Source of the DNA: a virus
Direction: 5' to 3' (one strand)
Length of the DNA: 64,000 nucleotides
Virus record (IMG/VR): IMGVR_UViG_3300042988_001550
Part shown: positions 8,497 through 63,016 of the stretch, piece after piece
Numbering within the stretch: position 1 is the first letter of the stretch
How the letters are laid out: the number at the start of each line of letters is the position of its first letter
Notes under the pieces: model-generated
The model's input: only the letters and a program-made list of their open reading frames with translations
Told to the model about the DNA's origin: nothing
The model's database searches: none
Position numbers and translations under genes: made by a program

Positions 8497-8505
8497 CTTA
8501 TGACA
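8497..8505 (+). promoter_or_regulatory. CTTATGACA motif copy (divergent intergenic region)
   Basis: Exact 9-mer. A TATAGCATAG box lies 46 nt downstream, then a ribosome-binding site and ATG 8573. Confidence 0.4.
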
Positions 8506-8572
8506 AGAATTTCCAGTTTTTTCTATGTTTCTGCTCATGGTGCAATACCATTATAGCATAGGAGACAGTTGA

Positions 8573-8851
8573 ATGAGCACACACCCGCTGGTCGATCAGT
8601 TTTGCCAGGCAGCCGACAAGTTTGCAGCAGTTACCGAAATTGCCGACAACCTTCAGAAGAAACGTATCGGTCTTTTTGAAACAATGATTACGATCTGGAA
8701 AGAGCTGCCACCGGCTGGCCGGGCTGAGGCTAGCGACCACCTTGTCAACCTCAATAAAGAGAGTAAACTTTCATTGCCGGGCGAGCACGCTTTTGTGGCT
8801 AGATTCAAGGACGCCGTGGCGAAATCGACTCAACTAAGGAGACAGGTATGA
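8573..8851 (+). CDS. hypothetical protein, 92 aa
   Basis: AGGAGA ribosome-binding site 8 nt upstream. A CTTATGACA motif and a TATAGCATAG box lie further upstream. Confidence 0.5.
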   Translation: MSTHPLVDQFCQAADKFAAVTEIADNLQKKRIGLFETMITIWKELPPAGRAEASDHLVNLNKESKLSLPGEHAFVARFKDAVAKSTQLRRQV

Positions 8852-9042
8852 AAGAAGGATGGAAGACAACTGAGGCGTGGGTTGTGGCTATTGTCAGCTA
8901 CCTAACGTCCGATGTGGTCATGAGCGAGAACGACGCCCAGGTCAAGATGGTTGCTTTAGCGTGCGGAACGCTCGCGGCCATGATGTACATCTGGAGCAGA
9001 ACGAAGGTCAAGGAAGTGGTCGGAGAAGAGGTGCAAGAATGA
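8848..9042 (+). CDS. small membrane protein, holin-like (two TM segments, charged C-terminus)
   Basis: Hydrophobic stretches AWVVAIVSYL and MVALACGTLAAMMYIW, then a charged tail KVKEVVGEEVQE. Translationally coupled to the upstream ORF and to the downstream lipoprotein. Confidence 0.45.
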   Translation: MKEGWKTTEAWVVAIVSYLTSDVVMSENDAQVKMVALACGTLAAMMYIWSRTKVKEVVGEEVQE

Positions 9043-9380
9043 AGCATCTTCTACTCCTTCCGCTGCTACTTATCCCTCTAGGGTGTGCAGCGATCGCTGA
9101 CCTTCTGAGTACACCGACAGAACCGCCCCCGGCCACGGCTCCCGAAGAACCGGGCACAGGGGAACCGCCCCCGACAGCTGCTCCCGCACCGGCCCCCGAG
9201 GGCACGGTTGGGGGCACGCTAGCCGACATCGTTGGTGGACTTATCGGCGCACTGACGGGTAACCCTGTCGCCACGGTGGCTACTACAGCCGCAGTGTCGA
9301 TCGGTATCGGATCCTTTGTCAAGAAGTACCAGTCCAAGAAGAAAGAACCGGCCGCACCCACCAAGACTGAGGCTAAGTAA
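9039..9380 (+). CDS. lipoprotein with Pro-rich linker and a C-proximal glycine-zipper hydrophobic segment (spanin-like architecture)
   Basis: The internal start MKHLLLLPLLLIPLGCAA is a lipoprotein signal with lipobox LGC. It is followed by TEPPPATAPEEPGTGEPPP and then GGLIGALTGNPVATVATTAAVSIGIGSFV. The track's longer ORF (8877 start) is an N-terminal extension. Confidence 0.55.
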   Translation: MKHLLLLPLLLIPLGCAAIADLLSTPTEPPPATAPEEPGTGEPPPTAAPAPAPEGTVGGTLADIVGGLIGALTGNPVATVATTAAVSIGIGSFVKKYQSKKKEPAAPTKTEAK

Positions 9381-9643
9381 CTCAGTCTGTTTGCCGGCGT
9401 TATTTTGACCCCTAAGTGGCGGATATTTCTATAGCATAGAAGTGTCCGCTTTTGTTTTTATGACACACTACACGCGAGCTCAAGACGTTGTTCCCGGAGA
9501 CTACCTCCTCAACCAGAAGACTACTGTGAAAGTAACCAGAGTCGAGAGACACGACGCAGAGATCATTCTGCACCTTTCAAACGGCAAGGTAGACCGCTTG
9601 AAGCCCAATGACAATGTTGCCCTCCTCCCTACCTACGATGACG

Positions 9644-10210
9644 ATGAAGCGTAAGCCGCTATACGTCCTGTTTTACACTGTAAACACTCCGTATGCTGAC
9701 GAGGCAGCGGAGTGTGTAAAAACACTGCGAGAGTTTCACCTCGACTACCACATCTACCCGGTACACAGCGAGGGATCGTGGGAGAAGAACACTCAGATAA
9801 AGGCTCGTGTTATTCAGCAAGCCCTGAAATCCACAGATCGGCCAATCGTGTATGTTGACGCAGACTCGCGTATCAAAAGTTATCCGATCTTATTGGATCA
9901 AATCGAGTGCGACGTGGCTTTCCACTACTTCCGTGGGGTGGAGCTACTCTCTGGTACGCTGTACTTTGGCAACACTGAGCGAGGCCGCAAGCTCGTAGAC
10001 GAGTGGGTTGCCGAGAACATCAAGTACCCCGGAGAGTGGGATCAAAAGGTGCTTCAACATGTTGTCGAGCGCCAGCACGATATTGAGTGGCTAATGCTTC
10101 CAGAAGAATACGTGTACGTTAGCCACCTATCGTCCACAAACAAAACCCCAGTCATTTTTCACACCCAGGCCAGCAGACGGCTCAAGGATCAAGTCAATGC
10201 AACCGCCTAA
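9644..10210 (+). CDS. nucleotide-diphospho-sugar transferase-like protein
   Basis: VYVDADS (DxD-like) motif with a GT-A-like layout. I moved the start to MKRKPLYVLFY. Confidence 0.4.
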   Translation: MKRKPLYVLFYTVNTPYADEAAECVKTLREFHLDYHIYPVHSEGSWEKNTQIKARVIQQALKSTDRPIVYVDADSRIKSYPILLDQIECDVAFHYFRGVELLSGTLYFGNTERGRKLVDEWVAENIKYPGEWDQKVLQHVVERQHDIEWLMLPEEYVYVSHLSSTNKTPVIFHTQASRRLKDQVNATA

Positions 10211-10961
10211 GAAGTACTTTATCGTGTCCGGCGTCTTCAACGCTGAACGGTATATCCGAAGATGCGTCGAGGCTGTCAATGATCAGGTGATCGACGGCTT
10301 CGAGGTGACACATGTAATCATCGATGACGGCTCAACCGATGCTACCGCGTCGGTTATAGCTAAAGTGCCACAAGTACCCCATATTCGCCGACACGTAATC
10401 ACCCACCCGAGAAATCTAGGGTCGGTAGACGCGCAAATGGCCGGCTTTGCTTATGCTCAGAACAATGGCCACGATCACGACGTTATCATCCAACTGGACG
10501 GAGATGATTGGTTTTGCACAGACGAAGCGATCAAAACTGTTCATGATACGTACGTAGAGACCGGTTGCGGTGCGACGTATGGAGATTGGGTTGGAACTTA
10601 CGGTGGCAAATCTAATTGCCGCCTACCAAACTGGTCTAATCTGCACGAGGACCTGAGGAGTAACGGCTGGTGCTTCTCGCACCTTAGAACATTCAGAACA
10701 GGCTACACCCGTCACCTTGACGTCGAGGATTTTAAGGACCCGACAAGAGGCGGTGCGTTCTTTAACGCGGCGTACGATGCGGTAGTCTGTCTGCCGATCT
10801 TCGAGTTTGCCGGAAAAGACAAGGTGGTCTGGATACGTACCCCATTGATCTACTACAACCAAGAGAATCCTCTGGCGGAAGCTCGGTTGCGCCTGAATGA
10901 TCAGAATCACTGTGCATTCGCTAGCTATGACAAAAAAATGCGCGCCCAGGTTGATATTTGA
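10197..10961 (+). CDS. family 2 glycosyltransferase
   Basis: Classic GT2 signature HVIIDDGSTDAT, plus DGDDWF. Confidence 0.7.
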   Translation: MQPPKKYFIVSGVFNAERYIRRCVEAVNDQVIDGFEVTHVIIDDGSTDATASVIAKVPQVPHIRRHVITHPRNLGSVDAQMAGFAYAQNNGHDHDVIIQLDGDDWFCTDEAIKTVHDTYVETGCGATYGDWVGTYGGKSNCRLPNWSNLHEDLRSNGWCFSHLRTFRTGYTRHLDVEDFKDPTRGGAFFNAAYDAVVCLPIFEFAGKDKVVWIRTPLIYYNQENPLAEARLRLNDQNHCAFASYDKKMRAQVDI

Positions 10962-11881
10962 TGCGTCCCATGAAAAGTACCTTCGACACCGTCGCTAGAA
11001 CCACGTTCGATTACAGGAAGCTCGTCGCATCTAGATCCTTTGGAATAGGTACAAGCGGAGACCTCACTGTTGTAATACCTGCCAGATCTCGCGCGTCTTT
11101 CCTTAAACCCACTATACGGTGCTTCAAGGCTGCGGAGCAACTTCTACTAGAGTCAGCAAACCCGAAACGGATAAACTACGTTTTGGTAGAATACTCGCAT
11201 CAGCGTGAGCATGAGGATAGCTGTAAGGATCTAGGTATTGGGTACATTTGGATAGCGTCTAGACCGGATCAGCAGTTCAATAAGTGTCTGGCAATGAACT
11301 GTGGTGCGGTCGCATTCCCGACGTCAAGTTTTTACCTTTTTCATGACATCGATTGTCTAGTACAACGGTCGTTCTTCGTAGATCTGTTCGACAACATTAA
11401 AGCCAGAGACTGTCGCGCAATCCAGGCCTTCTACGGAAGACGCCTGCTTTACCTAAACAAGTCAGCAACAGAGTGCGCGATTGCCGGAGCACTCAATGTT
11501 GATGACATCGACGCTAGTACGCCCGGCATTGTTGTTGGACCTGCCGGAGCACCCGGTGGATCAATCGCCATCGATAGAGAGCTGTTTATAGAGGTTGGCG
11601 GGTTTGATGACGAACTGTTTGCTGGATATGCTCCAGAAGACCGGTTTTTTTGGAACAAGCTGGAGTTGTTAACCAAGGTAGACACGGCGCACAATCCGGT
11701 AATAGAGATGGTGCATATGCACCACGAGTCTGCTATCGGCACAAATCCGTTAAGGAGCCAGTATATTAAGACTTGTGCAGAATTTGATGCCGCAAAACAT
11801 GCGGACAAGATGCGCCTGCTGACGATGAAGAAAAGTAAGCTGATTCCTCACATAACCGCCGAGACGATCAGGTCGTCGTGA
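10958..11881 (+). CDS. glycosyltransferase-like protein (GT-A type)
   Basis: LTVVIPARSRASFL near the N-terminus, FHDIDC, and a later FDDELFAGYAPEDRFF. Confidence 0.45.
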   Translation: MMRPMKSTFDTVARTTFDYRKLVASRSFGIGTSGDLTVVIPARSRASFLKPTIRCFKAAEQLLLESANPKRINYVLVEYSHQREHEDSCKDLGIGYIWIASRPDQQFNKCLAMNCGAVAFPTSSFYLFHDIDCLVQRSFFVDLFDNIKARDCRAIQAFYGRRLLYLNKSATECAIAGALNVDDIDASTPGIVVGPAGAPGGSIAIDRELFIEVGGFDDELFAGYAPEDRFFWNKLELLTKVDTAHNPVIEMVHMHHESAIGTNPLRSQYIKTCAEFDAAKHADKMRLLTMKKSKLIPHITAETIRSS

Positions 11882-12693
11882 TCTTCGTCAACATAAAGGG
11901 CGGGCTATGTAACTCGATGTTCCAGATAGCCGCCGCACATGCTATGGCTATCGAGACTAATTCTGAGTTCTCGGTGCCGAACTTTGACTATCACCTTGAG
12001 TTCATCAATAGCCGCTGGCACATACAGGCGGCCGACGCAACCCATAACAGTGTCAACAATGCTCAAGAGTATCGACAGTTTCTAAAAGTCAAAACAGCTA
12101 AACCTCCGCCACGTTGCGGTCAATACACTTACCCGTTCCACTTTGTTGACACAATTCCTAGAGACGAGCATTTTACAATTGACGGATACTTCCAATCTGA
12201 GAAGTACTTTCGAGGCAAACACGCGGCGGTTAGAGAGCTGTTTCGCATTCCAGAAACGTTAGAGAACACCATTCAGTCAAAGTACCGACAGCTGCTTGAT
12301 GGAACAACGATCGCACTACATGTGCGCCGAGCAGACTACATGTTGTACCCTAATCACCACCCGACGTTGTCGGCTGACTATTATGAGAAGGCTGTAGACG
12401 CCATCGGCAAGTATGACCGAGTGCTGGTATTCTCTGACGATAAAAACTGGAGCAACAGTTCCCTGAAATTTGACAACATGGTTCCCATAACTCAAGAGAA
12501 GGACTATATCGAGCTATTCCTGATGTCGAAGTGTTCTCACAACATCATCAGTAATTCAAGCTTCTCGTGGTGGGGGGCATGGTTAAATCAATCGATTGAC
12601 AAGAAAGTGGTTGGACCTTCTCGGTGGTTTGGTAAGGCATATGATCACTTCAATACAGCCGACATTCTTCCAACTAACTGGATACGTATCTGA
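11878..12693 (+). CDS. alpha-1,2-fucosyltransferase-like protein (GT11 family)
   Basis: GT11 motifs IALHVRRADYM (HxRRxD) and ISNSSFSWWGAWLN. Confidence 0.65.
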   Translation: MIFVNIKGGLCNSMFQIAAAHAMAIETNSEFSVPNFDYHLEFINSRWHIQAADATHNSVNNAQEYRQFLKVKTAKPPPRCGQYTYPFHFVDTIPRDEHFTIDGYFQSEKYFRGKHAAVRELFRIPETLENTIQSKYRQLLDGTTIALHVRRADYMLYPNHHPTLSADYYEKAVDAIGKYDRVLVFSDDKNWSNSSLKFDNMVPITQEKDYIELFLMSKCSHNIISNSSFSWWGAWLNQSIDKKVVGPSRWFGKAYDHFNTADILPTNWIRI

Positions 12694-13109
12694 TGGATAC
12701 CTTTTACTCTCGCGTCTCTCCGAACGATCTGCTGCACATCGTCTATCGCGCAGACGACTTCAAACAGCCGCGTCAAGAAATCGTCCCTGGCAGCAACTTC
12801 ATTCAATGTGCGGCACTGCGACTACCTAAAGAGAAAACGTTCAGAGCACATAAGCACATCACTAAACAACGCTCGTACGATAATCAGATCGCCCAAGAGT
12901 CGTGGATAGTGGTTAAGGGAAGTGTGCGGTGCTTCTTTTACGACTTAGATGATACCCTACTCTCAACATCGACACTGGGTCCCGGTGACGCGAGTTTCAC
13001 CTTAAAGGGTGGTCATAACTATCTAGTACTTGAAGACGATACTATCGTGTACGAGTACAAGACAGGTCCGTATGAAGGGCAGTCACTAGATAAGGTGTTT
13101 TTGTCTTGA
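12693..13109 (+). CDS. cupin-fold protein (sugar epimerase or WbuC-like)
   Basis: Small beta-rich ORF inside the sugar cluster with a histidine-containing cupin-like core. Assignment is tentative. Confidence 0.35.
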   Translation: MDTFYSRVSPNDLLHIVYRADDFKQPRQEIVPGSNFIQCAALRLPKEKTFRAHKHITKQRSYDNQIAQESWIVVKGSVRCFFYDLDDTLLSTSTLGPGDASFTLKGGHNYLVLEDDTIVYEYKTGPYEGQSLDKVFLS

Positions 13110-14059
13110 AGTTGCACCATGTCACCATCAGTGGAACAGGGTCTTACCTGCCGACTACTGTCGTAACAAACGAGAGTCTAGAAAAGACTGTAGATACTAC
13201 AGCGGATTGGATTTTTTCTAAGCTAGGGATCAAAGAGCGGCGTGTAGCACAAGAGGAACTGCCGTCATATATGGGACTTGAGGCGGCAAAGATGGCGATG
13301 GCCTCCGCAGGGATCAGTAAAGAGGATCTCGGCATGATCATAGTGGCCACGTCTAGCCCAGAGCAGATTTCTCCGGCCACCGCCTGCGTGATCCACAACA
13401 AACTCGGGATTCGCAAGAACGTTCCAGCGTTTGATATAAACGCTGTCTGTTCTGGCTTCTTGTACGCTGTGTCTCTGGCGGCCACCATGGTAAGCCATGG
13501 AACGTATGATCACGTTCTTGTTATCGCAACTGAGGCCTACTCGAAGATTACAGACTGGCACGATAAGCACTGTGTCTTCTTCGGAGACGGTGCCGGTGCT
13601 GTCGTTGTTAGTAGATCAGAAACAGGCTGGATGTCGTTTCTCCTAGAGGCAAACGGCTCCGGTACCGGGATGACCGGGTTCAAGCTACCGTTAAACTCGG
13701 TGTTTACGATGCGTGGTAAAGAAGTTTGGGATCAGGCGGTTAAGGTCATCCCTGACTCCATTAGGCAAGTGATGGCTCAATGTGATATAGGAATTGATGA
13801 CATCAGCCTGATCATCCCACATCAACCAAGTATTCACATCCTCAAGCAGGTAGCCGAACAACTAAACTGCCCGTTCTCGAAGGTCAAGACCGTCATGGAC
13901 AGGTATGCAAACATTGCAGGAGCGTCAATTCCTATCGCACTAGACGAGGCTGTGCGTCAGCAACAGGTTCGTCGCGGAGACCTCATCGTTTTATCAGCTA
14001 TAGGCTCTGGATGGACGTGGGGTTCGATGGTAGTTAGGTACGAGGGAGCAACATGCTAG
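13106..14059 (+). CDS. 3-oxoacyl-ACP synthase III (FabH/KAS III)-like
   Basis: ISGTGSYLP, catalytic-Cys context DINAVCSGF, GDGAGAVVV, HQPS, and GNIAGASIPIALDEA with Asn. Confidence 0.75.
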   Translation: MKLHHVTISGTGSYLPTTVVTNESLEKTVDTTADWIFSKLGIKERRVAQEELPSYMGLEAAKMAMASAGISKEDLGMIIVATSSPEQISPATACVIHNKLGIRKNVPAFDINAVCSGFLYAVSLAATMVSHGTYDHVLVIATEAYSKITDWHDKHCVFFGDGAGAVVVSRSETGWMSFLLEANGSGTGMTGFKLPLNSVFTMRGKEVWDQAVKVIPDSIRQVMAQCDIGIDDISLIIPHQPSIHILKQVAEQLNCPFSKVKTVMDRYANIAGASIPIALDEAVRQQQVRRGDLIVLSAIGSGWTWGSMVVRYEGATC

Positions 14060-14589
14060 ATAAGTTCAAAAAAGTCGGCGTCGATGTGCGAGTCAGCGAT
14101 CTGGCGGTAATTACCAGACCACACTTGATCGAGCTTGGAGACCATATCTCCATCGACCAGTGGGTCTATTTTTCCACGCAGGCCCGTCTAGGCTCGTACA
14201 TCCATATCGCACCGTCGGTGTCAATTATTGGAGGAGCAGACGCGCTGCTGGTGATGGAAGACTTCACTAACATCGGGTCCGGTGGCCGCATCGTGTGCGC
14301 ATCCGACGACTTCACCCAGGGCCTAATCGCCCCAGTCGTCCCAATCGAGTTCAGGACAGTGATAAACAAGCCCGTGACATTCAAGCGGTACTCAACTCTT
14401 GGAGTGAACTGTTCAGTGCTTCCCGGAGTAACCCTTGCTGAGGGGAGCATCGTTGGCGCCAACTCTGTGGTAACGAAAGACACGGAGCCGTGGATGATCT
14501 ATGCCGGTACTCCGGCGAGACCAATCAAGATGCGAGAAAAGACACGAATCATCGAGAGTGGTAAGAAATTGATGAATTACCCGGACTGA
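14053..14589 (+). CDS. hexapeptide-repeat (left-handed beta-helix) acyltransferase
   Basis: Repeated [LIV]-G-x-x-x-x hexads (ISIDQWVYFS..., IGSGGRIV, VGANSVV). Typical of PerB/WbbJ-type N-acetyltransferases. Confidence 0.7.
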   Translation: MLDKFKKVGVDVRVSDLAVITRPHLIELGDHISIDQWVYFSTQARLGSYIHIAPSVSIIGGADALLVMEDFTNIGSGGRIVCASDDFTQGLIAPVVPIEFRTVINKPVTFKRYSTLGVNCSVLPGVTLAEGSIVGANSVVTKDTEPWMIYAGTPARPIKMREKTRIIESGKKLMNYPD

Positions 14590-14613
14590 TCCTATAAGAC
14601 CGAACACGTAGCC

Positions 14614-15216
14614 ATGAACCTTAGAGAGCTTGCGCGGTGGGAGCATGACAACGGCCCTACAACACATTTTGTACAGTATGACCTGACTCCAGAAAGTGTC
14701 TGTTTCGATGTCGGGGCATATATTGGACAATACGCGCAGCTGATGCACGACAGATATTCTTGCCGGGTGTTCTGCTTTGAACCAGTGCGGGCGCATTTTG
14801 AGCAGCTAGTTTCCCGGCTACAAGGTAGATCTGGTATACAGTGCTTCAATGTCGGTCTCGGTCCAGAGGACACTAACCAGATCATAGCCATCAATGCCGA
14901 CTCGTCGAGCCTATTTTGTCTTAGCGACCGTATTGAGCTTGTCACAATTAGGTCCATAGACGCTGTTATGCGCGAAACCGCAGTCGGACAGATTGATCTG
15001 ATCAAGATCAACATAGAAGGCGGAGAGTACGCACTGCTTGATCATTGCCTAGGTACCGGACTCATCACAAGGTTTAGAAACATCCAGGTACAGTTTCATG
15101 ACTTTTTTCCCGACGCTGTTCACAGACGCAATACAATTAGAGACAAACTGTCGCTGACACACGACATAACATATGATTACGAGTTTGTGTGGGAAAATTG
15201 GAAACTAAGAACCTAA
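14614..15216 (+). CDS. FkbM-family methyltransferase
   Basis: FDVGAYIGQY (SAM motif I), then a FEP...F...FNVGLG pattern. Confidence 0.6.
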   Translation: MNLRELARWEHDNGPTTHFVQYDLTPESVCFDVGAYIGQYAQLMHDRYSCRVFCFEPVRAHFEQLVSRLQGRSGIQCFNVGLGPEDTNQIIAINADSSSLFCLSDRIELVTIRSIDAVMRETAVGQIDLIKINIEGGEYALLDHCLGTGLITRFRNIQVQFHDFFPDAVHRRNTIRDKLSLTHDITYDYEFVWENWKLRT

Positions 15217-15234
15217 TCAGAACAGTAGAGGACT

Positions 15235-15831
15235 GTGATGTCTTTTGACAGTGTGAGAGAGTTTGAGGATCAACTAGCTGCCTTTTTTGGGGCACCGCAC
15301 GCCATCGCTGTAGACTCGTGCACGCACGGGATCGAGCTGTGTCTGCGATACACCAACGAACGCAGCATCAGTGTTCCAAAACGAACATACATCTCTATTC
15401 CATTCTTGGCGAAGAAGTTACAGATTGACCTCTTTTGGCGCGACGAGTCCTGGGTAGACCACTATCAGGTTGCTCCGTCTATCGTCGACGCAGCTGTTTT
15501 ATGGAAACCTAACAGCTACAAGCCTGGACACATGATGAGCGTGAGCTTTCAGTTTCAAAAACACCTGTCGCTTGGGCGTGGCGGAGTTATTCTTCTAGAC
15601 GACCCGGTCGCCGCCAAGGCACTGAAAAAGATGTCCTACGACGGACGTCTTCCCGGTATTCCGTGGAGAGAGCAGGACATCGAGACTGTCGGGTATCACT
15701 ACTACATGACGCCAGAAACAGCTCAACTCGGCTTGAGTAAGCTCCCAGCCGCGATAGCCACAACGCCACGACAGTGGGTTGTCACTGATTGGCCCGACCT
15801 CACTAAAATGACTGTGTTCAAGCCCTCATGA
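15235..15831 (+). CDS. DegT/DnrJ/EryC1-like aminotransferase, half-length form
   Basis: N-terminal EFEDQLAAFFGAPHAIAVDSCTHGIELCL and C-terminal SFQFQKHLSLGRGGVILLDD both match the DegT family. The central ~150 aa, including the PLP-lysine region, seem to be missing. Confidence 0.45.
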   Translation: MMSFDSVREFEDQLAAFFGAPHAIAVDSCTHGIELCLRYTNERSISVPKRTYISIPFLAKKLQIDLFWRDESWVDHYQVAPSIVDAAVLWKPNSYKPGHMMSVSFQFQKHLSLGRGGVILLDDPVAAKALKKMSYDGRLPGIPWREQDIETVGYHYYMTPETAQLGLSKLPAAIATTPRQWVVTDWPDLTKMTVFKPS

Positions 15832-16811: not shown

Positions 16812-16823
16812 TTACACTTAGGT

Positions 16824-17138
16824 GTGAAATCTTACCCGAAGCAGTTCAAGTACGGCGGCATAAAGTACCGGATCATTTCTGAAGAAATGCCAGGGTTCTC
16901 TGGTATGGTTACCAAGGAACCGCCCGTAATCCGTATCTCTCCAAAAGACAACCAAACTGCGGAGGAGTATCGTAAGACGCTCCTCCACGAAATTCTTCAC
17001 GTGATTCTCTGGAATTGTGCCCAGAACAAACAGTCCTTCCTTAGACTTAAGGAAGAGACCTTGGTTGCCTTCTTAGAGAAGGAGATGTTCGAGGCCAAGC
17101 GTCTGAACCCTAAACTCTTCAAGTTTCTTTTTGGATGA
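16824..17138 (+). CDS. small HExxH metallopeptidase-like protein
   Basis: LLHEILHVIL contains HExxH. Otherwise unrecognised. Confidence 0.35.
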   Translation: MKSYPKQFKYGGIKYRIISEEMPGFSGMVTKEPPVIRISPKDNQTAEEYRKTLLHEILHVILWNCAQNKQSFLRLKEETLVAFLEKEMFEAKRLNPKLFKFLFG

Positions 17139-17515
17139 CCCTTCCCAAAACAATAACCATCGCCGTTCCTGATCGACCGCTATTTATGATCAAATCAAGA
17201 CGGCTACGTAAAAATTCAGACGGTGTGCAGATGACAGGGCAGCTAGACACCGAAAAGCAGGAGCTGATCATTCACGCTAGCCTAGACGAACGGCAACAGT
17301 CTGCCGCGCTCATAACCCTCTTGTCCATCCTTAACGAGGATCCAGCATACAAGGGACACCTGGCCCCAACACTTAATGAGAGCCTCTATAAGGTAGAGTG
17401 GTATACTTCAGGTAAGCCAGCTGCTGTGGCGACCAAACCGTCAAAGGACGCGACTAGGACCCAGGTTTTAGACATGGGTGACGACATCAAGATGATTAAG
17501 AGAGTAGGACACTAA
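17135..17515 (+). CDS. hypothetical protein, 126 aa
   Basis: Translationally coupled to neighbours. Confidence 0.5.
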   Translation: MTLPKTITIAVPDRPLFMIKSRRLRKNSDGVQMTGQLDTEKQELIIHASLDERQQSAALITLLSILNEDPAYKGHLAPTLNESLYKVEWYTSGKPAAVATKPSKDATRTQVLDMGDDIKMIKRVGH

Positions 17516-22812: not shown

Positions 22813-22846
22813 AAGAGGTAGCCAAACAATCTGCAGACTACATAAG

Positions 22847-22855
22847 TCTTATGAC
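22847..22855 (+). promoter_or_regulatory. CTTATGACA motif copy (palindromic form CATAAG-T-CTTATG)
   Basis: Exact 9-mer between two minus-strand genes. Confidence 0.4.
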
Positions 22856-22895
22856 ACATATTGTTGGTGGTTGGCGGGGGAACCCGCCAACCACG

Positions 22896-26089: not shown

Positions 26090-26134
26090 GTTCGGTTACA
26101 GTACGCTAGTACTGCCCAAAAGAGTTACAAAAAA

Positions 26135-26173
26135 CAAGTGATCCAATACTAGAGGATCATTTCTCTTATGACA
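26135..26173 (+). promoter_or_regulatory. Composite element GATCCAAT-N6-GGATCA-TTTCTCTTATGACA
   Basis: Exact 9-mer with an adjacent 6-bp GATCCA/TGGATC hairpin. A near-identical block lies at 60203..60257. Confidence 0.45.
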
Positions 26174-26203
26174 TAAAAACAAGGACTTGTGGTCCTTGTT
26201 AGG

Positions 26204-27376: not shown

Positions 27377-27417
27377 CATTGATCTAGTCTCCTTGTAGGA
27401 CGAAATGTCCTTCAAAG

Positions 27418-27426
27418 ACTTATGAC
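27418..27426 (+). promoter_or_regulatory. CTTATGACA motif copy
   Basis: Exact 9-mer, 40 nt upstream (minus-strand sense) of the MSMF start of the HTH gene. Confidence 0.4.
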
Positions 27427-27428
27427 AC

Positions 27429-27821
27429 TTATAGATCGACTTTTGAGAAGATGTCCTGGATCCTGTCCTTGCCAATCATTTCTACCGCAGCGTCAAAGTC
27501 AGCCGCCAGAGCCTTAACGATTACCTTGAAGTGCCGTTGAGTTTCTGAGTCTGATTGGAAAGTAGTACGATCGCGGACAGGCTCTGTGGTATTAGCGGCA
27601 GCCGCTTGTTCGCTCTTATAGTGTTCCCACTTGTTGACGATAGTGCGACCAGACAGACCTACCTCGGCGCCAACAATATAGGCGGCACTGCGGATGGATT
27701 TTCCTTCCGCGAGGAGTTCCAGCATTCTCGCCTTGATAATACCGGTCTTATTGCTAACCGGTTTGTGATCAACTTCCGACCCAACAACGTGGAATGATTC
27801 AGGGAGAGGTATCTGCGACAT
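27429..27821 (-). CDS. HTH DNA-binding protein, paralog
   Basis: GKSIRSAAYIVGAEVGLSGRTIVNKW parallels the HTH segment of the previous gene. Confidence 0.55.
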   Translation of the reverse strand: MSQIPLPESFHVVGSEVDHKPVSNKTGIIKARMLELLAEGKSIRSAAYIVGAEVGLSGRTIVNKWEHYKSEQAAAANTTEPVRDRTTFQSDSETQRHFKVIVKALAADFDAAVEMIGKDRIQDIFSKVDL

Positions 27822-30084: not shown

Positions 30085-30096
30085 AAAATTGAGTTT

Positions 30097-30118: not shown

Positions 30119-30284
30119 AACCATCATAATTTACTCAACTGTCTCAGTTCTACTGATACAAACGATGGACTCTTTTTGTGACATATCCGGCGAGTTCGGG
30201 CCGGCTGGGAAGCAGAGAGGTAATCACCCGAATCTCCTTTCGGGGTGTGGGACAGTGGGGGCTAAAGCAAACAGAATTTCTTCT

Positions 30285-30302
30285 GTCATTAGTCTTATGA
30301 CA
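30285..30302 (+). promoter_or_regulatory. Palindromic TGTCATTAG-T-CTTATGACA site
   Basis: Two inverted half-sites with one mismatch; exact 9-mer core at 30294..30302; TAGAAT 12 nt downstream. Confidence 0.45.
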
Positions 30303-30320
30303 CGAAATGATTAGAATTTA

Positions 30321-30527
30321 GTGATGAGAACTCTCTATAAAGTCGCCATGGCTGTATACACAGGAATGGCGTATAATTCAAAACCAGAGCCGGACGCCAA
30401 GCATATACCCAGGTCACACCGGGGTACCGACATATCCGGAAACAACTCGTCGGTAAACCCAGGAATTTGGACAGAACATACCCCTAAAACTAAACCGAGA
30501 AAAGTGACCGATGTCTCACAGTATTAG
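30321..30527 (+). CDS. hypothetical small protein, 68 aa
   Basis: First ORF after the palindromic TGTCATTAG-T-CTTATGACA site. No ribosome-binding site seen; weak call. Confidence 0.35.
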   Translation: MMRTLYKVAMAVYTGMAYNSKPEPDAKHIPRSHRGTDISGNNSSVNPGIWTEHTPKTKPRKVTDVSQY

Positions 30528-54624: not shown

Positions 54625-54945
54625 GGATCCCCCTCTGGTGCCACGCGGACACCTCTCTGCTTACCAGATGTCACCCTGGTAAGTGTTCAATCAAGCGGCT
54701 TTCACCGCTTGTGTGGGAATCTCCCACAAGGCGTAACCACTTGCGTGGCTGGAGAGTAGCCTGTTATCTCTCTCCACTATTCTTATGCCACATCCACCAT
54801 CACTTCTTGCCGAAGATGACAGTGAAGCACCAGAGGTAGATGCAGAGATGCCATCGTTTTACCGACAGCACTGCACCTAACTCTTTGTGTGTCCAGTCGA
54901 CACTGGCGAAGAACGCTAGGCGCCAGAAGCGCCAGTAGACGTAGT

Positions 54946-56173: not shown

Positions 56174-56202
56174 GTGTAGAGGGTCCTTTATCCCTCATAG
56201 TA

Positions 56203-56211
56203 CTTATGACT
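56203..56211 (+). promoter_or_regulatory. CTTATGACT variant motif
   Basis: Minus strand reads terminator, TCTTTTT, AGTCATAAGTAC, 22 nt, AAAGGA, ATG 56173. Confidence 0.4.
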
Positions 56212-56243
56212 AAAAAGAGGGTACTAGTTGTTACTAGTACCCC
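56211..56243 (-). terminator. rho-independent terminator
   Basis: Minus strand reads GGGTACTAGT-aacaa-CTAGTACCC then TCTTTTT. Confidence 0.6.
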
Positions 56244-57081: not shown

Positions 57082-57105
57082 TAAGCCCTCCTGTGGCTCA
57101 ACGAT

Positions 57106-57114
57106 CTTATGACA
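57106..57114 (+). promoter_or_regulatory. CTTATGACA motif copy
   Basis: Minus strand reads terminator, TTTCTTTTTT, AGCTAGAATGTGTCATAAGAT, 16 nt, AGGAGGG, ATG 57081. Confidence 0.5.
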
Positions 57115-57123
57115 CATTCTAGC

Positions 57124-57152
57124 TAAAAAAGAAAGCCACTTTCGTGACTTTC
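57124..57152 (-). terminator. rho-independent terminator
   Basis: Minus strand reads AAGTCAC-gaaa-GTGGCTT then TCTTTTTT, immediately before the GTCATAAG motif. Confidence 0.55.
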
Positions 57153-57468: not shown

Positions 57469-57488
57469 GTGTATTCTCCTTCTTGTAT

Positions 57489-57497
57489 CTTATGACA
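57489..57497 (+). promoter_or_regulatory. CTTATGACA motif copy
   Basis: Minus strand reads terminator, TTTCTTTTT, AGCTGGAATGTGTCATAAGAT, ACAAG, AAGGAG, ATG 57468. Confidence 0.5.
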
Positions 57498-57507
57498 CAT
57501 TCCAGCT

Positions 57508-57536
57508 AAAAAGAAAGCCACCGGTTAAGGTGGCCT
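57508..57536 (-). terminator. rho-independent terminator
   Basis: Minus strand reads GCCACC-ttaacc-GGTGGC then TTTCTTTTT. Confidence 0.65.
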
Positions 57537-57570: not shown

Positions 57571-58375
57571 TAACCCCTTCATTACCTGCCCACTTTGAAC
57601 TTTCGTTCGACTACATTACACTAGTCTAGTGGGATGGACTTTCTCTTCACCCTCGTCTTTACGTTAGGGTGCGCCGTGTAAAGTCTCTACACTTGCCCGG
57701 TTCTTTTAGGAACCTGCTAGCTCGGGATTGCCATTTTAAAGGTTTCCCCGACTTAGCGGCGTCCACTTTATAGGTTTCCCTAGAAAGGTCCGTAATCATG
57801 ACTTACTGCTGCGCTGAGTGTCAAACAACGTTCTCTCGAAAGGACAAAGCACGTTCTGTAAACGCATTCTGTTCTCGATCTTGTGCCGCCAGCTATAACA
57901 ACAGGAAGAAACCTAAGAGGGCGCGAAGCCGTCGGGATTCTAGTTGTGTTAGTTGCGGAAAAAGTACCCATAACCGTAGATTCTGCGATTTGGTGTGCTT
58001 CCACAGACTTAGGGCCGATACAAAGATCGCCAACTGGTTGTCAGGCCACGAGACGCGCGTCACCTCTCATCGAAGAGACGCTATCCGCTCCTGGCTGTTG
58101 AAGGACCAGCTAGAGAAGTGTGCCTTGTGCGCCCAATCAGGAAATTGGAACGGCAAGCCACTGCTTTTTGTTTTGGACCATATCAATGGAGACCACACCG
58201 ATAACAGCAGAACCAATCTACGCCTTATCTGTCATAACTGTGACTCACAGTTACCTACGTACAAAGGCAGAAATCGCGGTTTCGGGCGATACATCAGAAG
58301 ACAACGATACGCAGACGGTAAATCGTTCTAACAAATGAAGAGCTCTGCCAATTGAGCTACATCGGCAATTGAAAG

Positions 58376-58782: not shown

Positions 58783-58790
58783 GTGAGAGA

Positions 58791-59446: not shown

Positions 59447-59792
59447 TGGTGGACCTGGTCGGAGTCGAACCGACGTGTTTGAACTGTCGTTAGTATTCTT
59501 CTACACGCTTGTCCGATTTTTGTTCCACTGTCCAGGCATTAACCGGCAACTATCCCGGCAGTGGTTCCGCAGTATACGCCCTAGGTCGAAGCGGGTCTCT
59601 CCAGGGTGTCCTAATAGTTGCAGCCACTCCCTTATTAGGAATCAAGGGTGGCTGGGATTAGCGGAGTCTAGGCCGCCATCGCGAGCTGAGGTTCAGCATT
59701 TTAGTTTTCCCAAGAAGGATTAACGAGCTTACTTGAGATGCTCGGCGTGCTTCACTACATTTGACTGAACAAATCGAAACCAGTTCAGGCCC
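59447..59792 (-). ncRNA. ssrA: tmRNA (ssrA-like), 346 nt, tag ORF 59668..59697
   Basis: 5' GGGCCTG pairs with 3' CAGGTCC-A-CCA and includes the G3.U70 Ala identity pair. The T-arm is GTCGG-TTCGACT-CCGAC. GUGAAGCACGCCGAGCA parallels E. coli GGUGCAUGCCGAGG. The tag frame is aaaactaaaat-GCT GAA CCT CAG CTC GCG ATG GCG GCC TAG, giving (A)AEPQLAMAA. Confidence 0.7.
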
Positions 59793-60060: not shown

Positions 60061-60173
60061 TGGTCGGCCCGGAGGGACTCGAACCCCCAACCCTCCGCAT
60101 ATCAGACGGCGCCCAGTTGTTACACCAGGGGCGGATCATAAATCCACTGCTCTACCATTGAGACTACGGGCCG
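60061..60173 (-). tRNA. tRNA-like gene with anticodon UAU (Ile-type) and a ~41-nt insertion between the anticodon stem and T-arm
   Basis: CGGCCCG/CGGGCCG, GTGGA/TCCGC with loop TTTATGA, GGGGG-TTCGAGT-CCCTC, A73, and CCA. It is 113 nt long. Confidence 0.4.
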
Positions 60174-60202
60174 GATTGTAGAGAAGTGAGGACAAAAGAA
60201 GT

Positions 60203-60257
60203 CCTTAAAGGAGAGATGTTTTTGATCCAATGAGAGTGGATCAATTTCTTATGACAC
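60203..60257 (+). promoter_or_regulatory. Composite element GATCCAAT-N6-GGATCA-ATTTCTTATGACA upstream (minus-strand sense) of the tRNA-like gene
   Basis: Same composite architecture as the block at 26135..26173. Confidence 0.45.
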
Positions 60258-60259
60258 AA

Positions 60260-60646
60260 TTATAGCTTAGTCTTGGTCTTCGTGGTCTGAAAAGTTGTGG
60301 TTTTTTCGACCAGCGTTTCAATTGGATAGCCTTTGCGCATCCAGTCAGCGGAGTTAATCGCCTGCAACCAGTCCGCTACCGTCGGGATGAATCCGCAATC
60401 TTCTTTGACGTGCTGCTCCCCAATCAACCGGGTAGGGATGACCTTACCATCACTGTTGGTGATCGTAGGACCAAAAGCAGCCTCAAGCATGAAGATGCCA
60501 GCCGAATGGTGCAGCATCGCTCGGTGACGGAAATCGGCGATATGTGCTTTTGACTGATCGAACCACAGATGTAGATCGTAATAGTCTTCCCACTTACCGC
60601 CAAAAAGAACCGCAGAGGATCTTGCGTGATCGTAGCAGGTACCCAT
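60260..60646 (-). CDS. hypothetical protein, 128 aa
   Basis: ATGA-coupled to the upstream ORF. Confidence 0.5.
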   Translation of the reverse strand: MGTCYDHARSSAVLFGGKWEDYYDLHLWFDQSKAHIADFRHRAMLHHSAGIFMLEAAFGPTITNSDGKVIPTRLIGEQHVKEDCGFIPTVADWLQAINSADWMRKGYPIETLVEKTTTFQTTKTKTKL

Positions 60647-61038
60647 TACTCACCTATCTTCAGGTGGCTAGACGACGTATCATATGTGATGGTGGCTTGG
60701 TTAACTGTAAGGACGGCGTCCCCGTTCCTAAGGTTGATGACAACCGAACCGTTCCCTCCCTCATTATTCCACCAATCTGGACCACCGTGGGCGACTTCCA
60801 TGGCGGCGTCCTTCAAGCTTCTATAAGCGTCACGTGCTGATTGAGCTGATACCTGTTTTTCAACAAGGATAGCTGTTAACCAGTCTGGGACGATCCTTTC
60901 AAAGTTCTGAGCCGGATGATGCGGGTGCGTTACATATGAGTCGTCAATATCACCGCTATCTCCACTCCCACTGAAAATGACCTCCATCGACTCAAAGCCT
61001 AGTTTCCTCAGAAGTCTTCTTGCTCTTTTTGTTTCCAC
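60646..61038 (-). CDS. hypothetical protein, 130 aa, acidic
   Basis: First ORF downstream (on the minus strand) of the long non-coding stretch. Confidence 0.5.
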   Translation of the reverse strand: METKRARRLLRKLGFESMEVIFSGSGDSGDIDDSYVTHPHHPAQNFERIVPDWLTAILVEKQVSAQSARDAYRSLKDAAMEVAHGGPDWWNNEGGNGSVVINLRNGDAVLTVNQATITYDTSSSHLKIGE

Positions 61039-61376
61039 GTTTTCCTTAGTAAAAGAATGGGGTAGCTACTCCCCATCCAGTGTTGACTTGTATTCCCAGT
61101 CGGTCACGTTTCACCGAACGGTCAACAGCAGAGCTGGTCGTCTTTGTTTTGTGTCGTCAGCCCTAGGTGTGAGACCGCTACAGTCACCTAGAACTTATCG
61201 TGCCGTGAGCTCACAGCACGAGACCATGGATTTCTCCCGCGCTAGTACTTAAGGTCGGTTTAGCGTCCACTAGCAGGACGTGTTAGTGCCCCCTACAGAT
61301 TGCTCTGTAGGGGGCGACCGTTAACCCTTTAAGCAGTTCAGCTGCTCATAGATCTTATGCCACAAATCCGCTGGAT

Positions 61377-62963
61377 TTAGTCCTTGGCGAAATTGCTGAT
61401 GAGAGCCGGAGTCTCGGTATCGTACCCGACGATGTCCAGCTGGTGCGGGTCTTGAGGATCCGCGATGGTGAAGCCGGTAGCCGTCATGCCGACGACGATG
61501 GCCTTGGCGTTGGGGCGGTTGCGTTCCTTGCGGAATCGATTCAGCGCCTGGTACGGCTGCACGCCGCCGTTCGTCTCATTGTCAGTCATGATGACGAAGC
61601 AATCCACGTCACGCTTCTGGGAGGTCGCGTACGAGTAGGCCGCCGAGCAGTCGGTTGATCCGAAGTTGTTCATGACAACCTTGTGCATAGCAGTCGCCAG
61701 GGTATCGTTTGCATGGATACCCAGGTCCTTGATCGTGCTGGCGAAGCCAACGATCTCGTGGTAGGGCTCACGTCGAGCCAAAACCATTGCCAGGCACGCG
61801 GTACCCATCGCCGGGGTGAACCCAGGGAAGACGGAGCCCGCCGAGCCGTACCCACCACCAGCCATCGACCCCGAAACGTCAAGCGCCAGCAAGAAGTTCT
61901 TGTTGGACGGTTCGACGTTGTTGAAGGCGTGGTAGAACAGCGCTTCCGTGACATCGGTGATGGTGCTCACCGGGGTCCAAGACAGGCTGCCCTTGATGCC
62001 ATGACCCTGACGGTACGTGTAGTAGGCGGCCAGCGCCTGCATCGGATGGATACGCGACTTTTTGATCGCTTCCTTATCCGACAGCTTCTGCTGGACCAAC
62101 TTCGTAGCCGAGCTGAGAGGCTTCAGCAAGCCGTTCGCCGTCATGCGCGCCAGGTTGCGGGTTAGCGCATTCAGCGGCATGTTCGGCAGCAAGGCTTCCC
62201 AGATCTCCGGATTCCCCAGCTGCTCCGTCGGAATCATTTCCCAGGTGATCGACTTGTTGCGTCGAATCACAGCGAGGATACCATTCTTGTCCGCCTTGCT
62301 GATTTCCTCCAGATCCGCGACGATCTGAGGAATACCTTCAGCAATCACATTCTTGCACGCCCACTGGAACAGTGCCTGCTGTTCCTTGAGAAGCGGCTTC
62401 GGGTGAGCCATGCGCAGCACGTCACGATGCGTCCACCCGTTGCGGTTGCGGTACTTGGCCATCTGATAGGCGAGGTCGTCGCCCTTCTTGTTGATGTACC
62501 AATCACCAACCGTCGTGCAGAGCATACGCCCCCAGCCGCGCATGTTCTGGACCTCTTCCGTGAACTGGAACAGGTGGGTACCCGTCCGGATCACCTGATA
62601 GAAGACGGCCTTGGCAGCCACCTTCGTCGCGAGGTCCTTGCTGCTCATCGCCATTGCCAAAGCAAAAATTGCGGGGTCTTGCTTCGGCGCACGCCCACCG
62701 ACGCTGATGTCGCGGATGACACCAACCGTCTTGGGACCGTCAGCATTGAGGCAGCGGGTCACCACCTCAGCATTGTCCACAGTCAGCTTGCGCTCGGACA
62801 CGTAGTACGTGCCGCCGCTCGACCCGAGAATCAGAAATCGTTCCAACCGCTTCCAGTCGTCAGTCTGGAACACATACCCACCGGTGTTGTTCAGTACCTG
62901 GTCTGAACGTGTCTTCTCGTGCACCGGTGCAGGAGTGTTCAGGATCTTGCCGTAGTTCTTCAC
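61377..62963 (-). CDS. rsr: Ro60/Rsr ortholog (TROVE domain plus C-terminal vWA/MIDAS)
   Basis: N-terminus NNTGGYVFQTDDWKRLERFLILGSSGGTYYVSERKLTVDNAEVV matches Ro60. The C-terminus has LALDVSGSM...TDNETNG (MIDAS). GTG start follows an AGGAGGG ribosome-binding site. Confidence 0.8.
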   Translation of the reverse strand: MKNYGKILNTPAPVHEKTRSDQVLNNTGGYVFQTDDWKRLERFLILGSSGGTYYVSERKLTVDNAEVVTRCLNADGPKTVGVIRDISVGGRAPKQDPAIFALAMAMSSKDLATKVAAKAVFYQVIRTGTHLFQFTEEVQNMRGWGRMLCTTVGDWYINKKGDDLAYQMAKYRNRNGWTHRDVLRMAHPKPLLKEQQALFQWACKNVIAEGIPQIVADLEEISKADKNGILAVIRRNKSITWEMIPTEQLGNPEIWEALLPNMPLNALTRNLARMTANGLLKPLSSATKLVQQKLSDKEAIKKSRIHPMQALAAYYTYRQGHGIKGSLSWTPVSTITDVTEALFYHAFNNVEPSNKNFLLALDVSGSMAGGGYGSAGSVFPGFTPAMGTACLAMVLARREPYHEIVGFASTIKDLGIHANDTLATAMHKVVMNNFGSTDCSAAYSYATSQKRDVDCFVIMTDNETNGGVQPYQALNRFRKERNRPNAKAIVVGMTATGFTIADPQDPHQLDIVGYDTETPALISNFAKD

Positions 62964-63007
62964 ATGCCCTCCTGTTGTTGGAAAAAAAAGAGCTAGAGCT
63001 CGAAAGT

Positions 63008-63016
63008 CTTATGACG
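63008..63016 (+). promoter_or_regulatory. CTTATGACG variant motif upstream of rsr
   Basis: Minus strand reads GTGGGGTGA-ttaagt-TCACCCCAC, TTTTTTT, AGCTCAAATATATCAGCAAACACGTCATAAGAC, 38 nt, AGGAGGG, GTG 62963. Confidence 0.45.

Follow-up and report, generated by a model that had tools for sequence, protein, structure and literature searches.

The 64-kb window analyzed here, that is, the whole 64,000-nucleotide (nt) stretch of viral DNA from IMG/VR record IMGVR_UViG_3300042988_001550, contains a nine-base word, CTTATGACA, that recurs between its genes in a single orientation. Judged from sequence, this word is probably the core of a strand-specific class of promoters, which serve the non-structural units transcribed leftward and whose reader is a holoenzyme with the sigma factor that the phage itself encodes. 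The position, orientation, conservation and geometry of the element make it very likely to be a promoter. That the phage sigma is its reader is favored on balance, given a consensus unlike that of host promoters, the persistence of the signal across hosts, and the finding that a sigma factor is the only transcription protein found in common with Salmonella phage Arash. Because the promoter design is shared by related phages with the same unusual sigma, it is probable that the phage supplies a promoter code of its own. The original prediction for this DNA had proposed a phage-specific promoter, possibly read by the sigma factor; the strand specificity of the motif, its place upstream of co-oriented genes, its conservation in relatives and in distant phages, and a -35-like element in fixed register all support that proposal, while several of its details needed revision.

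Copies, consensus and placement of the signal

Exact copies of CTTATGACA number eight in the window, all on the plus strand, against 0.46 expected by chance (about 0.5 had been estimated), and none of 100 shuffled sequences reached eight. In an unbiased k-mer count the motif supplied the most over-represented 8-, 9- and 10-mer of the window, with no reverse-strand copies. The exact copies start at 8497, 22848, 26165, 27419, 30294, 57106, 57489 and 60248; all eight had been listed in the original prediction, three of them one base away (22847, 27418 and 60249). The four single-mismatch copies named there also exist, at 9457 (given as 9458), 56203, 61354 and 63008. As a class, one-mismatch copies exceed chance only weakly (21 found where 12.7 are expected; 21 was reached in 3 of 100 shuffles), and the four therefore had to be judged with a better model. 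In a position-weight scan those at 56203, 61354 and 63008 match the refined model NGKCATAAG with 19-29 bits, and an overlooked further site appeared at 54782-54790 (TGGCATAAG, 19 bits). A possible second motif, TATAGCATAG, has two exact plus-strand copies (8552 and 9430) and is not significant.

Since the neighboring genes lie on the minus strand, the element is read as TGTCATAAG, the minus-strand form of CTTATGACA, and position 1 below is the T of TGTCATAAG. The consensus comes from an alignment of 36 NGKCATAAG sites in the 153 kb of the window plus related contigs (39 sites once the contig L018 was added); the sites in relatives are partly orthologous to one another and hence not fully independent. 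The resulting minus-strand signal is asymmetric: cCAAAA, 13 nt, T-R-TG-K-CATAAG-A, 4 nt, TG. Positions -19 to -14 read c(C/T)AAAa and are followed by a non-conserved stretch, which becomes A/T-rich at positions -6 to -3; positions -2 to 2 read T-R-T-G, with T at position 1 in 27/36 sites and G at position 2 in 36/36. Position 3 is T or G (T in 24/36), positions 4-9 are CATAAG in every one of the 36 sites, and position 10 is A in 32. Downstream, position 15 is T in 29/36, position 16 is G in 30/36, and position 17 is A. The A-run occupies a fixed register, -17 to -14, in 22/36 sites, which leaves a 16-bp spacer to the -10 hexamer. Neither this -35-like A-run nor the conserved TG at the predicted start had been noticed in the original prediction. 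When scanned with the weight matrix, the 12 window sites score 15.9-29.4 bits, all on the minus strand; the next-best match, a degenerate mirror copy at 30284 on the plus strand, scores 9.8 bits, and shuffled sequence yielded 0.45 matches at 12 bits or more.

If positions 4-9 are taken as the -10 hexamer, the upstream TG falls at -15/-14, the extended -10 position, with one variable base between it and the hexamer. The hexamer CATAAG then has C at -12, A at -11 and G at -7, the A of position 10 becomes -6, and T15-G16 become -1 and +1; this conserved dinucleotide sits exactly 7 nt past the hexamer, which as a pointer to the start of transcription is only suggestive. The motif T-R-T-G corresponds to the “-16 region” known from Gram-positive promoters, and extended -10 promoters function without a -35 element. 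Every conserved part thus fits a place where a holoenzyme of the sigma-70 family would be predicted to contact DNA. The signal departs from that of canonical primary sigmas at three points, with G at -7, C at -12 and a -35-like CCAAAA instead of TTGACA; T at -7 is among the best-conserved bases for primary sigmas. In scans with the TTGACA/TATAAT consensus, canonical matches near the sites were not above chance. The hexamer TAAGAT, earlier suggested as the -10, does not hold, as the base after TAAGA is not conserved (T in 13/36) and the invariant block is G-K-CATAAG-A.

Other promoter types agree poorly with this architecture. A bipartite signal with a non-conserved 13-nt spacer argues against a T7-like single-subunit RNA polymerase, whose promoter is conserved continuously over about 20 bp from -17 to +6, and for a bacterial-type polymerase. 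No T7-like polymerase was found among the window open reading frames (ORFs) screened, where the Pfam and PHROGs scans took in a subset of the ORFs and tblastn was run against the Arash genome only. An N4-type promoter is a DNA hairpin upstream of the start (5-7 bp stem, 3-nt loop); here, positions 3-7 and 13-17 are the one pairing that could form a stem, and they lack covariation and are 55-80% complementary. A sigma-54 reading of TGGCAT fails on a GG that is not conserved (position 3 is T in 24/36) and on the lack of GC at -12. Finally, ATGACA on the plus strand has no -10 at the right spacing to serve as a -35, and the downstream genes are on the other strand.

The sites of the window, together with the gene of the proposed reader, are as follows.

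5182..5892, plus strand: sigma-70-family factor with regions 2, 3 and 4 and no region 1; proposed promoter reader.
8489..8524, minus strand: predicted promoter, 9-mer at 8497-8505, A-run at the -35-like position, 15.9 bits; 40 nt upstream of the TTG start of a metallophosphatase operon (8456-6958).
9449..9484, minus strand: degenerate copy, TGTCATAAA at 9457-9465, between two plus-strand genes and adjoining a hairpin, <8 bits; it has A at the otherwise invariant G, is left out by the weight-matrix scan, and its function is doubtful.
22840..22875, minus strand: predicted promoter, 9-mer at 22848-22856, 29.4 bits, the highest in the window; upstream of ORF 22812-22030 on the minus strand, further ORFs and tRNA-Arg.
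26157..26192, minus strand: predicted promoter, 9-mer at 26165-26173, 27.4 bits; right after terminator 26200-26178, which ends the tRNA-Tyr/Leu unit, and followed by a hairpin GATCC-N9-GGATC; the downstream unit has ORFs, then tRNA-Leu and tRNA-Pro.
27411..27446, minus strand: predicted promoter, 9-mer at 27419-27427, -35-like CAAAA, 18.5 bits; upstream of ORF 27379-27062, then tRNA-Ser, tRNA-Val, an ORF, tRNA-Leu and tRNA-Tyr.
30284..30292, plus strand: mirror copy TGTCATTAG, which breaks the invariant A at position 7, 9.8 bits; probably not a full-strength site.
30286..30321, minus strand: predicted promoter, 9-mer at 30294-30302, -35-like CTAAA, 28.3 bits, no ORF downstream; probably drives a non-coding RNA of about 200 nt that ends near a GC hairpin and T-run at about 30097-30085.
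54774..54809, minus strand: candidate site, TGGCATAAG at 54782-54790, without the -35-like A-run, 19.2 bits; overlaps the stop codon of ORF 55061-54783 and lies 157 nt upstream of ORF 54624-54349.
56195..56230, minus strand: predicted promoter, AGTCATAAG at 56203-56211, 19.7 bits; abuts the T-run of terminator 56244-56217, 29 nt upstream of an ATG at 56173.
57098..57133, minus strand: predicted promoter, 9-mer at 57106-57114, after a hairpin and T-run (about 57152-57126), 25.3 bits; 24 nt upstream of an ATG at 57081 with a GGAGG ribosome-binding site.
57481..57516, minus strand: predicted promoter, 9-mer at 57489-57497, 20.0 bits; after terminator 57539-57512, 20 nt upstream of an ATG at 57468.
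60240..60275, minus strand: predicted promoter, 9-mer at 60248-60256, 23.2 bits; heads an RNA-gene cluster comprising a hairpin TGATCCA-N7-TGGATCA, a tRNA-like element (60173-60064), the transfer-messenger RNA (tmRNA) gene (59792-59447) and seven tRNAs down to 58376.
61346..61381, minus strand: predicted promoter, TGGCATAAG at 61354-61362, directly past the Ro60 stop codon, 29.2 bits; heads a 338-nt ORF-free stretch that ends at terminator 61078-61055, a candidate structured RNA.
63000..63035, minus strand: predicted promoter, CGTCATAAG at 63008-63016, -35-like CAAAT, 19.3 bits; downstream of terminator 63069-63046 and 44 nt upstream of the Ro60/TROVE start at 62963.

The sites avoid coding sequence, as had been claimed: with a generous list of ORFs and RNA genes, the gene-free part makes up 7.5% of the window and wholly contains 11 of 13 sites. 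One of the other two overlaps a stop codon, and one lies in a doubtful 96-amino-acid (aa) ORF, where an identical public contig has no gene call. Every site points the same way as the genes or RNA genes downstream of it; the sites are placed 20-44 nt ahead of the ribosome-binding site and start codon of a gene, or they precede RNA genes. The minus-strand units headed in this way include tRNA and tmRNA clusters, Ro60, phosphoesterases, small ORFs and candidate small RNAs. The plus-strand structural-type genes (baseplate-J-like, a 3764-aa IPT/TIG protein, and a glycosyltransferase/FabH-like block) have no copy of the motif. The earlier label of a late or middle promoter is therefore not upheld, the motif being on the non-structural strand with its tRNAs, tmRNA and accessory genes and not at structural genes.

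Terminators directly upstream of the motif, originally described for four genes, are seen at 56244-56217, 57539-57512, 63069-63046 and 26200-26178, and a further hairpin with T-run upstream of 57114 can be read from the sequence itself. About one third of the copies come immediately after the terminator that closes the unit before, with its T-run standing in for the -35-like element. This arrangement is compatible with promoter function because extended -10 promoters need no -35, and such terminator-proximal copies may be weaker or differently regulated. The block AGCT(A/G)GAAT, reported to precede the motif at four genes, does so only at 57106 and 57489, is displaced at 63008 and is absent at 56203; a related block, AGCTATAAT, is found at 60248. 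The larger block said to be common to the copies at 26165 and 60248 is present and is also kept in the related contig L008.

Two kinds of sequence adjoin some of the sites. A palindrome, (T)GATCC(A)-N7-9-(T)GGATC(A), occurs at 60215-60238 and 26130-26152 on the minus strand, predicted +2 to +25 of two promoters, and is conserved at L008:4289-4310; it could form a 5′ RNA hairpin or a regulator binding site overlapping the start. At site 26173 it is followed by a T-run, in an attenuator-like arrangement. A host-like -10 element, GCTAYAMT, lies upstream of the sigma-containing plus-strand operon in relatives (L002:1644, L003:1973 and L018:469) and in the window at 8557 (minus), 33541 (plus) and 60266 (minus), thus 44 nt upstream of site 8505 and abutting site 60256. 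Such adjacency to the phage motif suggests dual promoters. The GC prefix of GCTAYAMT resembles alphaproteobacterial -10 elements, a weak hint to the host.

Relatives, distant phages and the phage sigma factor

The window represents 64 kb of a genome of roughly 120-170 kb, and its relatives were likewise read as pieces: 20 kb around the sigma gene in four contigs (L001, L002, L003 and L018), and the surroundings of Ro60 homologues in two others (21 kb in L007, 5 kb in L008). Homologues of the sigma factor, 58-92% identical, are encoded on metagenomic contigs of up to 166 kb; within IMG/VR, no close relative was found by protein query, by the extended motif or by a 32-mer of L003. In the relatives, the motif occupies equivalent intergenic places in gene-parallel orientation, with 0/39 sites on the opposite strand. 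These places are the divergent region by the phosphatase operon, the region upstream of a reverse-transcriptase operon, both sides of Ro60, and the regions upstream of tmRNA, tRNAs and small ORFs behind terminators. Orthologues of site 8505 were found at L001:13126, L002:13409 and L018:12440, and those of sites 60256, 61362 and 63016 in L008 at 4275, 3122 and 1470, respectively. An exact copy, L003:13871, stands at the place equivalent to the degenerate copy at 9457, and in L007 the mature tmRNA 5′ end lies 17 nt past the 9-mer. Flanking sequences have diverged between relatives with the signal unchanged.

Among isolates, detectable similarity is limited to Salmonella phage Arash, Vibrio phages D69, D148 and D181, and Pseudanabaena phage PA-SR01. 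The sigma factor is 27% identical to Arash gp10 and the helicase 37% identical to its Arash counterpart; D69, D148 and D181 give weak partial sigma matches, and PA-SR01 matches by the helicase alone. Window ORFs with a tblastn match in the Arash genome (OQ632216) encode the sigma, a phosphoesterase, two structural proteins, the helicase and an HNH protein, and the Arash genome is laid out alike, its structural genes on one strand and its tRNAs and non-structural genes on the other. The most over-represented k-mer of Arash, CTTATACCA, is TGGTATAAG when read on the non-structural strand. That strand carries 34 of the 36 GNTATAAG sites, most of them with a ribosome-binding site and ATG within about 15-35 nt. 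Thirty NGGTATAAG sites on the same strand give the arrangement tCCAATAA (-20 to -14), 13 nt, TGGTATAAG, w-a-a-n-g, TG-TA (15-18). In Vibrio phage D69 (OZ195729) it is tCAAyAw, 13 nt, TG-(T/C/G)-TATAAG, 5 nt, TG-ta. The register of all three parts is therefore common to lineages with different hosts, and the G at -7 is invariant in about 100 sites from the three. Position 3 varies both between and within lineages, as does the “n” of an extended -10 TGn. The word “promoter” does not occur in the Arash paper (PMC10585845), and among the papers inspected from a literature search with the motif strings none was relevant.

The ORF at 5182-5892, noted earlier as sigma-70-like, encodes a genuine sigma factor, with regions 2-4 in order and alignment to sigmas of solved structure. 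It opens at a TTG (5167), but its homologues align from the ATG at 5182, which is the probable start. Its profile can be aligned over positions 8-239 to SigA, SigF, SigB and RpoS chains with E-values down to 2e-15, and the protein matches PHROG 351 (sigma factor family) at 3e-13. Recognizable motifs include FRTY...LRG in region 2, ARIPEN in region 3.0 and a C-terminal helix-turn-helix; the protein begins at region 2.1, region 1.2 being absent. Primary sigmas use region 1.2 as part of the pocket that takes up T at -7, and its absence here fits a different base at that position. Among NCBIfam models SigF scores best and FliA/WhiG second, all far below their family cut-offs. By these comparisons the window sigma is a separate family, with 294 cluster representatives at E <= 1e-30 and about 300 clusters at 50% identity in metagenomes.

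The gene for the sigma is part of a plus-strand, structural-type operon without the motif upstream, and Arash gp10, whose type of sigma the two genomes have in common, is in a similar place, a plus-strand block after large virion proteins. In purified virions, Arash gp10 was identified with 467 spectra at 100% coverage, alongside a beta-beta'N fusion (gp206), a beta'C protein (gp216) and a helicase (gp217) (PMC10585845). The polymerase identity of gp206 and gp216 is borne out by Pfam. The fusion joins beta to the N-terminal half of beta', and its homologues, at 45-95% identity, are abundant in metagenomes.

In the proposed mechanism, a holoenzyme with the phage sigma would bind c(C/T)AAAa, TRTG and CATAAG and would begin transcription, leftward, at the G of T(-1)G(+1), each copy of the signal heading one minus-strand unit. 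Because the sigma gene lacks the motif and belongs to a structural-type operon, its product could be used in either of two ways. The sigma could be packaged and delivered with the DNA, being first to act and switching the units on early in the next infection, as the Arash virion data hint; alternatively, it could be made from a host-type promoter, and the units would be activated as a second wave. It is possible, though we consider it doubtful, that the sigma is an injected virion protein and that TGnYATAAG marks the early promoters of an injected machinery, which in some phages (Arash) would include a co-injected beta/beta' core.

Several observations weigh against a promoter class read by the phage sigma. 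The A-run is missing or shifted in 14/36 sites, mostly where a terminator T-run takes that position, and the -35-like element holds about 0.4-0.7 bits of information per position, although the sigma has a region 4. Both the transcription start point and promoter activity are deduced from the pattern of bases. No polymerase core gene was found in the window or in the sequence of its relatives (153 kb). A search with gp206 returned 425 matches, the best 120 of which do not include the relatives' contigs, and no similarity to Arash gp216 is seen in a 653-aa ORF that lies upstream of the helicase. In Arash, a second sigma, gp196, could be the reader, and the authors of that study cautioned that abundant non-structural enzymes were also detected in their virions, possibly as contamination (PMC10585845). 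Lastly, the -10 of Arash and D69 is TATAAG after TG, one base off the host extended -10 consensus, and this nearness leaves room for a host primary sigma as reader.

Alternative explanations

The alternative that survives best, which we nevertheless regard as unlikely, is that the host primary sigma reads TRTGn-YATAAG as an extended -10 early promoter and that the phage sigma has no role. A TG at -15/-14 in a TRTG context would suit such a reader, and the TATAAG of Arash and D69 equals TATAAT at 5/6 positions; the one base that differs, however, is the G at -7 that does not vary across about 100 sites, three lineages and different hosts, and in the clade of the window -12 is C as well. Upstream, CCAAAA or CCAATAA is unlike TTGACA. 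In other phages, e.g., T4, the host polymerase usually transcribes small early-type genes that have a promoter and terminator of their own, which would favor the same assignment here. Against it, the architecture follows the phage clade rather than the host, and a separate host-like element, GCTAYAMT, is found elsewhere, one such element upstream of the tmRNA being kept in both the window and L008.

The repeated terminator-promoter units could instead be mobile cassettes whose main role is in recombination and gene shuffling, an explanation that is compatible with promoter function and to which, as the principal one, we give little credence. The model is provided by the PeSL of T4-type phages, a terminator stem-loop with a host sigma-70 early promoter, for which a role in shuffling has been proposed (PMC2839356, PMC4122927). 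The likeness is one of layout: a terminator stem-loop with a conserved promoter right behind it recurs between small variable genes, and such an arrangement is seen at 26173, 56211, 57114, 57497 and 63016 in the window and at L007:7743, 11619, 12407, 17085 and 18183. The order terminator, T-run, motif and short gene thus recurs at at least 5 window sites and several in L007, and gene content around the sites differs among relatives while the motif stays. Yet the consensus here is non-host, many copies have no terminator, 22/36 sites carry a -35-like element rather than a terminator, and the repeat is short, about 17-36 bp.

The operator of a dimeric regulator, with inverted half-sites TGTCATAAG/CTTATGACA, had been put forward as the alternative to a promoter and is rejected as very improbable. 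It takes its appeal from a near-perfect palindrome at 30284-30302, a partial one at 22841-22856, and the way in which consensus positions 3-7 (TCATA) mirror positions 13-17 (TATGA). The two sides do not behave as half-sites, however: the left one is invariant, as against 55% conservation at positions 13-14, and sites with G at position 3 never have C at position 17, i.e., there is no covariation. In addition, Arash and D69 show no symmetry, an asymmetric upstream element stands in fixed register, and 39/39 sites of the clade have one orientation relative to genes. The inverted repeats at 22848 and 30284-30302 can be explained by a downstream consensus, wnTGa, that happens to mirror CATA.

An element acting at the RNA level, such as a conserved 5′ leader, a processing site or a stability element, has a comparably slight chance of being correct, for the motif does lie in leaders near ribosome-binding sites, twice with a conserved hairpin after it, but it is found ahead of protein genes, tRNAs, tmRNA and non-coding stretches without distinction and at no fixed distance, is coupled over 13 nt to an upstream element just past or overlapping the tail of the preceding terminator, and has the geometry of an exact holoenzyme fit.

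Neighboring genes, comparable systems and implications

Several RNA genes and candidates lie in the units described above. The window encodes 14 tRNAs in three minus-strand clusters. The tmRNA gene (59447-59792, minus) specifies a short tag, AEPQLAMAA, and is conserved at L008:4730-5075; a host-like -10, GCTATACT, with CTGGCA 17 bp upstream, precedes it and is kept in L008. In L007, a tmRNA-like 5′ end, GGGGGTGTACCGGTTTCGACGG, follows the promoter at 13062, where ARAGORN calls no tmRNA. The first RNA after the promoter at 60256 is a 110-nt element (60064-60173, minus) that matches the Rfam tRNA model with 44 bits and is not called by ARAGORN; it may be a tRNA-like domain or an interrupted tRNA. 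Another tRNA gene (58366-57545, minus) seems to be interrupted in the anticodon loop by a group I intron of some 750 nt (Rfam 57.6 bits, core 57809-57617), with the 5′ exon GCCGATGTAGCTCAATTGGCAGAGCTCTTCATT and a 3′ exon that ends in GGGTTCAAATCCCATCGTCGGCTCCA; an HNH-like ORF (57798-58331, plus) lies in the intron region on the opposite strand.

Ro60/TROVE (61377-62963, minus) is full length, with Pfam TROVE and vWA_Ro60 domains. The ORF-free 338-nt stretch downstream of it (61045-61350, minus), behind its own promoter copy and ending in a terminator, is a candidate for a Ro60-partner (Y-like) RNA. Its first 130 nt or so are kept in L008, including a hairpin, CCCCnACAGAGnAATCTGTnGGGG, and a block, GTCCTGCTAGYGGACG...CTTAAGTRCTAGCGCGG. 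Rfam gave no Y-RNA match at threshold near Ro60, and YrlA does not match the 61045-61350 stretch. A second candidate non-coding RNA of about 200 nt (30085-30290, minus) would run from the promoter at 30302 to the GC hairpin and T-run and contains an internal hairpin, CACACCCCGAAAGGAGATTCGGGTG; Rfam has no match for this region (30.1-30.3 kb).

On the plus strand, the 3764-aa ORF (37816-49110) follows a baseplate-J-like gene and presumably encodes a giant tail fiber or adhesin. Its only recognizable domains are IPT/TIG, and neither its nucleotide nor its protein sequence has a match in 50,697 phage records; the N4-like phage that its size might suggest is rejected on its domains, its position and that search. 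In relatives, an RVT_1 reverse-transcriptase operon stands behind the same promoter, and a diversity-generating retroelement that targets proteins of the 3764-aa type is possible. The plus-strand block at 9608-18864 holds genes for glycosyltransferases, a nucleotide-sugar epimerase and a FabH-like 3-oxoacyl-ACP synthase III; at the corresponding place, relatives encode methyltransferases, a radical SAM protein and UDP-glucose dehydrogenase, and the block is a variable sugar or lipid modification island.

Of known bacterial signals, extended -10 (TGn/TRTGn) promoters come closest in form, with TG one base before the hexamer, TRTG, A at -11, an apparently dispensable -35 and a predicted start 7 nt on; the signal described here differs in CATAAG (TATAAG in Arash and D69) with its C at -12 and invariant G at -7, and in CCAAAA/CCAATAA as against TTGACA. 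Promoters of the sigma-28 type (FliA, SigD) have the consensus TAAA-N15-GCCGATAA. They resemble it in an A-rich -35 (CTAAA or CCAAAA), a 13-14 nt spacer, an eight-base block with ATAA at its end, and a sigma that has regions 2-4 and is about 240 aa long. Membership in this class is nonetheless not indicated, as the -10 block agrees only at ATAA (TGKCATAA vs. GCCGATAA) and the NCBIfam scores fall below the cut-offs.

Phage-encoded sigma factors with promoters of their own include gp28 and gp33/34 of Bacillus phage SPO1, gp36 of coliphage phiEco32, and gp55 of T4, which acts at late promoters. As in those systems, a phage sigma would mark a class of genes by a compact, conserved, non-host consensus. 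Here, however, the consensus is another one, regions 2-4 of the sigma are kept, the sigma gene lies among genes for virion proteins and its Arash homologue is found in virions, and the genes controlled would be non-structural and tRNA genes, not late structural ones. The polymerases of the jumbo phages phiKZ and AR9 provide a further parallel, since they also follow a phage-wide, host-independent code. The late promoter consensus of phiKZ is (-3)TATG(+1) (PMC7618050), and TATG is also frequent in the start region here, its G falling on the predicted +1; Arash, moreover, encodes beta and beta' homologues found in virions. Unlike the architecture and sigma described here, which are of bacterial type, those polymerases have highly diverged sigma-like subunits and no -35/-10.

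What is new here, as far as sequence can tell, is a probable sigma/promoter pair with an unusual -10 base across a large uncultured phage group. For this group of mostly uncultured phages of 130-190 kb it offers a promoter model, -35 CCAAwAA, 13 nt, TGnYATAAG, 5 nt, TG, which is directly testable in Arash, as that phage can be cultured on Salmonella; the Arash-type polymerase has hundreds of homologues. A bacterial-type sigma that accepts G instead of T at -7 would be informative on how region 2 reads the non-template strand, and a compact, orthogonal sigma/promoter pair is a candidate part for synthetic biology. If the sigma is indeed delivered by the virion, it would represent a new strategy of host-independent early transcription. 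It would be the third virion-delivered transcription system, beside the single-subunit polymerase of N4 and the multisubunit polymerases of phiKZ and AR9, and the first with a recognizable sigma-70-family factor and its own code of -35, extended -10 and -10 elements, with G at -7.

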